From the NCBI RefSeq assembly GCF_053078305.1, contig NZ_CP166879.1: 64,000 nucleotides of DNA. The stretch is one strand, 5' to 3'. The notes beneath the pieces were generated by a model that was given only the letters and a program-made list of their open reading frames with translations, did no database searches and was not told where the DNA came from. Below, one piece after another: positions 57,895 to 58,532 of this stretch. The position numbers and the translations under genes are program-made. Numbering within the stretch: position 1 is the stretch's first letter; every line of letters begins with the position of its first letter.

Positions 57895-58532
57895 ATGAAA
57901 AATGTACTCATTCTTGGTGCTGGCGGTCAGATAGCCCGCCATGTGATTAATCAACTGGCAGATAAACAAACCATTAAACAAACTTTATTTGCTCGTCAGC
58001 CAGCAAAAATACACAAACCCTATCCAACTAATAGCCAGATTATTATGGGGGATGTACTGAATCATGCAGCACTGAAGCAGGCCATGCAGGGACAGGATAT
58101 TGTGTATGCCAACCTTACGGGGGAAGATTTAGATATTCAGGCAAATTCAGTGATCGCTGCGATGAAAGCCTGTGATGTTAAACGTCTGATCTTTGTTCTT
58201 TCCCTCGGCATTTATGATGAAGTTCCAGGAAAATTTGGCGAATGGAATAATGCAGTTATTGGTGAGCCCCTAAACCATTCCGCAGGGCTGCGGATGCAAT
58301 TGAGGCTTCTGGACTGGAATATACAATTCTTCGCCCTGCCTGGCTGACGGATGAAGATATTATTGATTATGAGCTTACCTCACGCAATGAACCATTCAAA
58401 GGTACGATCGTATCACGTAAGAGTGTCGCAGCATTAATTACAGATATCATCGATAAACCTGAGAAACACATTGGTGAGAATATAGGCATCAATCAACCCG
58501 GGACTGATGGCGACAAGCCATTCTTCATGTAA
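57895..58532 (+). pseudogene. ymjC: NmrA-like NAD(P)-binding protein with an internal -1 frameshift (ymjC-like)
   Basis: N-terminal frame MKNVLILGAGGQIARH... stops at 58347; the C-terminal part continues in another frame (...RRAADAIEASGLEYTILRPAWLTDED...GTDGDKPFFM, stop 58530-58532); frame break at the A-run near 58271-58276. Confidence 0.6.

Follow-up and report, generated by a model that had tools for sequence, protein, structure and literature searches.

Our analysis indicates that the gene at positions 57895-58532 of the window (the whole 64-kb stretch of DNA that was analysed) is very probably a recent, clonally inherited pseudogene, frameshifted by the deletion of a single base. An ancestor of this E. 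coli lineage would have lost one A from the AAAA spanning codons L126 and K127. Intact, the affected gene would encode an NAD(P)H-binding oxidoreductase of the atypical SDR type (212 aa), and the ymjC of K-12 is a remnant of this same gene. Translation would leave the native frame after L126, add 24 unrelated residues, and stop at 58345-58347.

Two reading frames of one oxidoreductase gene

The frame that opens at 57895 on the plus strand translates to MKNVLILGAGGQIARH...VIGEPL, then NHSAGLRMQLRLLDWNIQFFALPG, and ends at a TGA codon (58345-58347), giving 150 aa, of which 126 are native and 24 are out of frame. The frame one base back (-1) reads KPFRRAADAIEASGLEYTILRPAWLTDED...GDKPFFM; taken from 58200, it gives ...APKPFRRAADAIEASGLEYTILRPAWLTDED...DKPFFM and stops at 58530-58532. 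The third frame contains many stops across the region. The two coding frames overlap by one base, with the CTA codon of L126 at 58270-58272 and the AAA codon of K127 at 58272-58274. The native protein could be made only if base 58272 served both as the end of the former and as the start of the latter. Alignment with intact E. coli genomes places here a single one-base gap, CCCCT-AAACC against CCCCTAAAACC. We refer to the two forms of the run as A3 (AAA, in the window) and A4 (AAAA, in intact genes). The features of the locus are:

57895..58347, plus strand: truncated open reading frame of 150 aa (translation; exact product found on 24 public contigs)
57895..58272, plus strand: native N-terminal part M1-L126, with the GAGGQIA motif at residues 8-14 (matches NAD_binding_10 positions 1-121)
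58272..58274, plus strand: the lesion, a one-base deletion that leaves AAA in place of the AAAA of intact orthologues (alignment gap)
58272..58532, plus strand, -1 frame: stranded C-terminal remnant K127-M212 and stop codon (matches NAD_binding_10 positions 125-184)
58551..58577, plus strand: predicted hairpin of 12 bp with a 3-nt loop, followed by UUUAUU, 19 nt past the native stop (fold prediction)

Adding one A yields a 212-aa protein. The intact RefSeq coding sequence is 639 bp long and uses the same start codon as the window. The repaired protein is the exact sequence of a protein named 'MULTISPECIES: SDR family oxidoreductase [Enterobacteriaceae]', which occurs on at least 1000 contigs, and it is identical at 211 of 212 positions to the solved structure 3QVO in the PDB; over residues M1-L126 the sole difference from 3QVO is G115V. 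It matches the Pfam profile PF13460 (NAD_binding_10) over positions 1-184 of 184 (E=3.7e-54; 183.8 bits, for a gathering cut-off of 27.2). The encoded 150-aa frame matches this profile by itself at positions 1-121, and the 86-residue peptide of the downstream frame matches by itself at positions 125-184 (E=6e-18). Because each half and the repaired protein match NAD_binding_10 in register, the juxtaposition of the two frames is, as judged from these alignments, not due to chance. A glycine-rich dinucleotide-binding motif follows the predicted first beta-strand, within the stretch VLILGAGGQIA (residues 4-14). The domain is not encoded in one continuous frame here, as it breaks after codon 126, and the locus is best read as a pseudogene of the PF13460 family and not as a working member. 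Separate expression of the C-terminal piece was considered and rejected, because the listing of open reading frames contains none of at least 30 aa on the plus strand that starts with ATG, GTG or TTG and ends at 58532.

The lesion had been described in an earlier note as a single-base frameshift at an A-run in a Rossmann-type NAD(P)-binding gene, and the alignment gap, the repair and the profile matches all agree with this description. Its coordinates were exact (end of the N-terminal frame at 58347, other frame to 58532, TAAACC at 58271-58276), and its prediction that one extra A would restore about 210 aa is borne out by the repaired length of 212 aa. The comparison with intact orthologues that it proposed yields a single-frame protein that includes the downstream-frame sequence, with the extra A present in the matches listed. 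The label 'NmrA-like' is loosely acceptable, since 3QVO was deposited as 'NmrA family protein', but the best family is PF13460 (183.8 bits against 41.1 for NmrA). The NmrA-like profile PF05368 (298 positions; cut-off 27 bits) aligns residues 2-100 with its positions 3-104 only, a match that reflects the shared Rossmann N-terminus. For the E. coli protein, all NCBIfam models stay below their cut-offs, and therefore no specific function can be transferred to it from that collection.

Distribution of the A3 allele

We compared the gene and its short flanks (711 bp) with other E. coli genomes. The best 60 matches all span 712 bases, and in three complete genomes among them the gap is the only difference from the window (99.9% identity). 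This near-identity suggests that the event is recent. A 71-mer across the site matches 2,924 of the 5,426 complete RefSeq E. coli genomes, in all cases at 98.6% or less, which corresponds to one gap, and every match listed carries the extra base and an intact gene annotated 'SDR family oxidoreductase'. A 33-mer search in which each 28-base seed was forced to contain the A3 run found the A3 allele in none of the 5,426 complete genomes. Over 14 kb, the window and the nearest complete genomes differ by about 0.5%, and no closely related A4-bearing sister genome of the A3 lineage was found.

The exact 150-aa product does occur on 24 contigs of public collections, in separate data sets whose independence was judged by accessions, contig sizes, SNPs and prophage content. 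We fetched five of these loci (L004 and L006-L009) from four data sets, namely the NCBI draft GCA_018683035.1 and the Logan assemblies of SRR30292771, SRR30307408 and ERR6099384. The A3 45-mer is present in each of the five loci, and over 6.5-16 kb only 0-3 SNPs separate them from the window. Three of them (L007-L009) carry a prophage at about 54583 of the window that is absent from the window itself; in L008 this prophage has a gene content unlike that in L007 and L009. These differences imply that the loci come from separate isolates. As the same A3 allele is found in near-identical yet separate isolates, the deletion is, on the evidence of these contigs, inherited within one clone.

The prophage occupies positions 1-6688 of L007, L008 and L009, and encodes an integrase, a DnaB-like helicase and NinB. 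Its junction falls within mppA, a minus-strand gene that starts near 54651, about 69 nt from the 5' end, and murein-tripeptide uptake may be disrupted in this sub-lineage, unless the phage end rebuilds mppA.

The absence of A3 from complete RefSeq E. coli genomes, together with the position of the lesion in a homopolymer, might be thought to betray an assembly or sequencing artefact in a strain that is truly AAAA and has an intact gene. We consider this very improbable. The same A3 run and 150-aa product are present on the 24 contigs, including an NCBI draft and Logan assemblies built from the short reads of three runs, and the SNP and prophage differences prove that these are not the same data set. 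Runs of 3-4 bases are not error-prone, and longer runs were left intact: A5 (twice) and G5 (twice) inside the gene and G8 in the neighbouring gene. No other coding indel of the window was found in about 64 kb of comparison with its nearest neighbours. Relative to E. coli ETEC6335 there are 2 indels in 26.9 kb, the other one being intergenic at 41229. Relative to E. coli ES5 there are 5 small indels in 49.9 kb, of which 4 lie, by coordinates, outside the coding sequences annotated in ES5; the fifth is in ynbC, where the ES5 copy is frameshifted and the window frame is intact. The recurrence of A3 in independent assemblies and the scarcity of indels elsewhere thus indicate that the deletion is real. 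A contingency locus, at which slipped-strand mispairing would switch the run between A3 and A4 and the gene between off and on, would fit a change in the length of a mononucleotide run at a locus with other independent lesions. Known phase-variable homopolymers have about 7 or more bases. The run of 3-4 bases is well below such tracts, frequent switching would have scattered A3 over many lineages instead of confining it to one near-identical clone (0/5,426 complete genomes), and the other lesions in the gene are deletions of 13 bp and of several hundred bp, not changes in run length. Phase variation at this site is accordingly also very improbable.

Least credible of all, to the point of being nearly negligible, is a programmed -1 ribosomal frameshift in which base 58272 would be re-read at CUA-AAC and the full-length enzyme would be made, possibly under regulation. 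A -1 shift after CUA would indeed yield the native L-K-P-F exactly. However, the zero frame reads GAG CCC CUA AAC CAU and offers no slippery heptamer of the form X_XXY_YYZ, re-pairing from CUA to CCU and from AAC to AAA would be improper in both cases, and the 89-nt segment that covers the site and extends downstream is no more stably folded than shuffled sequence (z = -0.59). A programmed shift would be conserved among orthologues, and the split is not: the A3 form occurs in 0 of the 2,924 complete genomes that hold the region. Of the options that the earlier note had set side by side, the fixed pseudogene is the one that stands, with an identical truncated product and A3 DNA allele on 24 contigs of one clonal lineage. 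Its homopolymer sequencing error is contradicted by those contigs, from independent data sets, and by the lack of other coding indels over ~64 kb. Its slippage-prone site finds no support, given a run of only 3-4 bases and the restriction of A3 to one clone.

Neighbourhood, decay and consequences of the loss

The 64-kb window is E. coli chromosome, collinear with ES5 and ETEC6335, and contains no insertion sequences. A Shigella origin, in which pseudogenes would be expected, is unlikely given this collinearity and the lack of insertion sequences. In near-identical RefSeq genomes the gene order is mppA, pgrR, two tandem alpha/beta-hydrolases (the first being ycjY), the oxidoreductase, mpaA, ycjG, tpx and tyrR. 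The neighbours in the window have the lengths of their RefSeq counterparts (pgrR 299 aa, hydrolases 306 and 309 aa, mpaA 242 aa, ycjG 321 aa). The oxidoreductase would be the last gene of a unit that holds the two hydrolase genes, by pgrR and upstream of mpaA; ycjY-ymjDC-mpaA is listed in the PgrR regulon (PMC5934670).

The hairpin at 58551-58577 has a predicted folding energy of -19.3 kcal/mol (z = -4.27), which none of 200 shuffled sequences equalled. A consensus terminator scan did not list it, and it is a probable intrinsic terminator of the unit that ends with the oxidoreductase gene, according to the fold prediction. Since this terminator-like hairpin and about 290 nt separate the gene from the start of mpaA, the premature stop probably has little polar effect on the latter.

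The two hydrolase genes (56013-57874) are tandem paralogues of dienelactone-hydrolase-like type. The stop codon of the first and the ATG of the second share base 56945, which suggests translational coupling. The second contains a G8 homopolymer (57290-57297) that encodes GVCGGGGY. In the Logan assembly of SRR5024481 (L010) this tract is G10 and the gene is split into pieces of 126 aa and 196 aa. Slippage (or an assembly error) is much more plausible at this tract than at the A3/A4 run.

The locus has decayed by other routes in E. coli. The region containing the break is kept in 2,924 of the 5,426 complete genomes, and just under half are without it; among these, the genomes that we sampled keep only the first 139-145 bp of the gene. 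A K-12 derivative has two deletions, corresponding to 57003-57894 and 58034-58696 of the window, which leave 139 bp. Deletions of this type remove most of the second hydrolase gene, the rest of the oxidoreductase gene and the terminator-like hairpin. The loss of the latter may explain why the K-12 remnant has been described as co-transcribed with mpaA (ycjY-ymjDC-mpaA). Some other genomes lack the second hydrolase gene only. The assembly of SRR5024481 carries an independent 13-bp deletion in the oxidoreductase gene (58325-58337 of the window; cluster member P0002). The same 90% protein cluster contains further truncated proteins (132-141 aa), most of which carry a 'partial' flag, and one of them, P0003, was rejected as a shared frameshift because its fetched locus ends at the contig end. 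A pan-genome survey in which ymjC figures as a putative oxidoreductase whose presence varies in E. coli found the gene in 0-100% of isolates depending on the phylogroup (PMC9602453). In the papers found, lactic-acid tolerance and trimethoprim MIC are the sole phenotypes tied to ymjC (PMC9602453, PMC8355897). The pattern of these deletions marks the gene as one that is dispensable and decays repeatedly.

What the truncation does to the protein can be judged from a single-sequence AlphaFold model, which is of low confidence (mean pLDDT 63) and was used for secondary structure only. In this low-confidence model, strands span residues 4-8, 27-32, 69-74 and 97-102, and helices 12-22, 57-64, 79-93 and 115-120; beyond residue 126 it places a helix at 127-138, strands at 142-151, 157-163 and 171-173, and a helix at 175-187. 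This suggests that a single Rossmann-type domain loses its final two helices and final three strands through the truncation. Since a single-domain fold would be truncated, the 150-aa product is most likely inactive, and we read its loss as neutral.

The truncated product does keep the dinucleotide-binding motif in its 126 native residues, and one might ask whether the 150-aa protein has a function, for example as an NAD(P)-binding half-domain that has acquired a new role, or whether losing the oxidoreductase is itself adaptive. Several observations could be cited in favour: these residues match profile positions 1-121, A3 has been retained in isolates set apart by the gain or loss of a prophage, E. 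coli strains have lost the gene by several independent routes, and deletion of the K-12 remnant is reported to have shifted the trimethoprim MIC two-fold, without complementation (PMC8355897). Yet, each has a simpler counterpart. A fragment that has dropped two helices and three strands, as the low-confidence model has it, would usually be unstable, a neutral mutation would be expected to persist within a clone at 0-3 SNPs per 6.5-16 kb, relaxed selection would equally well account for the repeated loss of an accessory gene, and the K-12 phenotype is small and was not complemented (PMC8355897). We find a function or advantage of this kind highly unlikely. The bolder proposition that inactivation of the oxidoreductase has been selected, and not neutral, across the at least four independent disabling routes in E. 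coli, is also unlikely, if a little less so. The four routes would be the K-12-type double deletion (roughly 40% of genomes), the change from A4 to A3, the 13-bp deletion and the contig-end truncations, which may reflect insertion sequences. If it were true, the A3 lineage would be a natural minimal knock-out with the PgrR-controlled hydrolase/mpaA neighbourhood intact, and could help to reveal the role of the gene.

Inactivation by a neutral, clonally inherited deletion, the reading that we prefer, has practical consequences. In annotation, the two pieces at 57895-58532 belong together as a single frameshifted pseudogene of a ymjC-type SDR oxidoreductase; a short NAD-binding protein should not be recorded here, nor should the assembly be 'corrected' at the lesion. 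The A3 allele provides a clean marker of one E. coli clone, and to the known decay of the locus in K-12 it adds a further, independent lesion. Isolates of the lineage could serve as natural single-gene knock-outs in the search for the substrate of a structurally solved enzyme.

Other loci of the window also differ from those of related genomes. The minus strand at 19673-25567 holds an uninterrupted frame of 1964 aa at the position of the ydbA autotransporter, with imperfect tandem repeats of about 30 bp around 24872-25231. In K-12, ydbA is interrupted by insertion sequences, and in ES5, the closest complete genome, the region is annotated as two incomplete pieces. At about 37136, beside ttcA, the window and ES5 are without a Rac-type prophage; in ETEC6335, recE, recT, ralR, xisR and intR occupy this site, and the part of that genome that aligns with the window begins only at 37136. 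The gene ynbC (12779-14536, minus strand) is intact in the window (585 aa), with a C4 run at about 14511 where ES5 has C5 and is annotated as frameshifted. The remaining small differences comprise an extra G at 41229 upstream of dgcM and a difference of A7 versus A8 at 25676 (both intergenic by the ES5 annotation), as well as deletions of 9 bp (1365) and 1 bp (1424) relative to the closest genomes, between trg and hokB.

Comparison with intact and decayed relatives

The closest system is the intact 'SDR family oxidoreductase' of E. coli and Shigella (for example WP_000800184.1 in strain PS10-3; structure 3QVO), which occupies the same locus and uses the same start codon. Over 711 bp, the DNA of the window is identical to an intact gene of this type apart from the one-base gap; the window copy has A3 where the intact gene has A4, and encodes 126 native and 24 foreign residues instead of 212. 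The more distant relatives are atypical SDRs of the PF13460 family of similar size (about 205-220 residues), including BLVRB (1HDO), ChuY/ShuY (5GUY, 5FFQ), 3R6D and 4IPT, and we infer that they and the E. coli protein have in common a single-domain Rossmann fold. These solved relatives match across the frameshift site (E 2e-19 to 2e-5), and 3R6D and 4IPT align through it with the repaired protein over almost the whole of their own length. BLVRB is a biliverdin IX-beta/flavin reductase, and its relationship to the E. coli protein is distant; 3R6D and 4IPT are uncharacterised and were deposited only as 'NAD-dependent epimerase/dehydratase'.

Set against these relatives, the window copy is an ordinary pseudogene, and it leaves current understanding unchallenged. 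Its counterpart in K-12 is the ymjC remnant (with ymjD), an orthologous gene in the same position that is also non-functional, and which RefSeq describes as 'NAD-dependent dehydratase, incomplete, missing C-terminus'. The statement in the earlier note that the K-12 gene is a pseudogene too was right as to its status, but the lesion is a different one: K-12 has suffered two deletions that spare 139 bp, whereas the window retains the whole gene minus one base.
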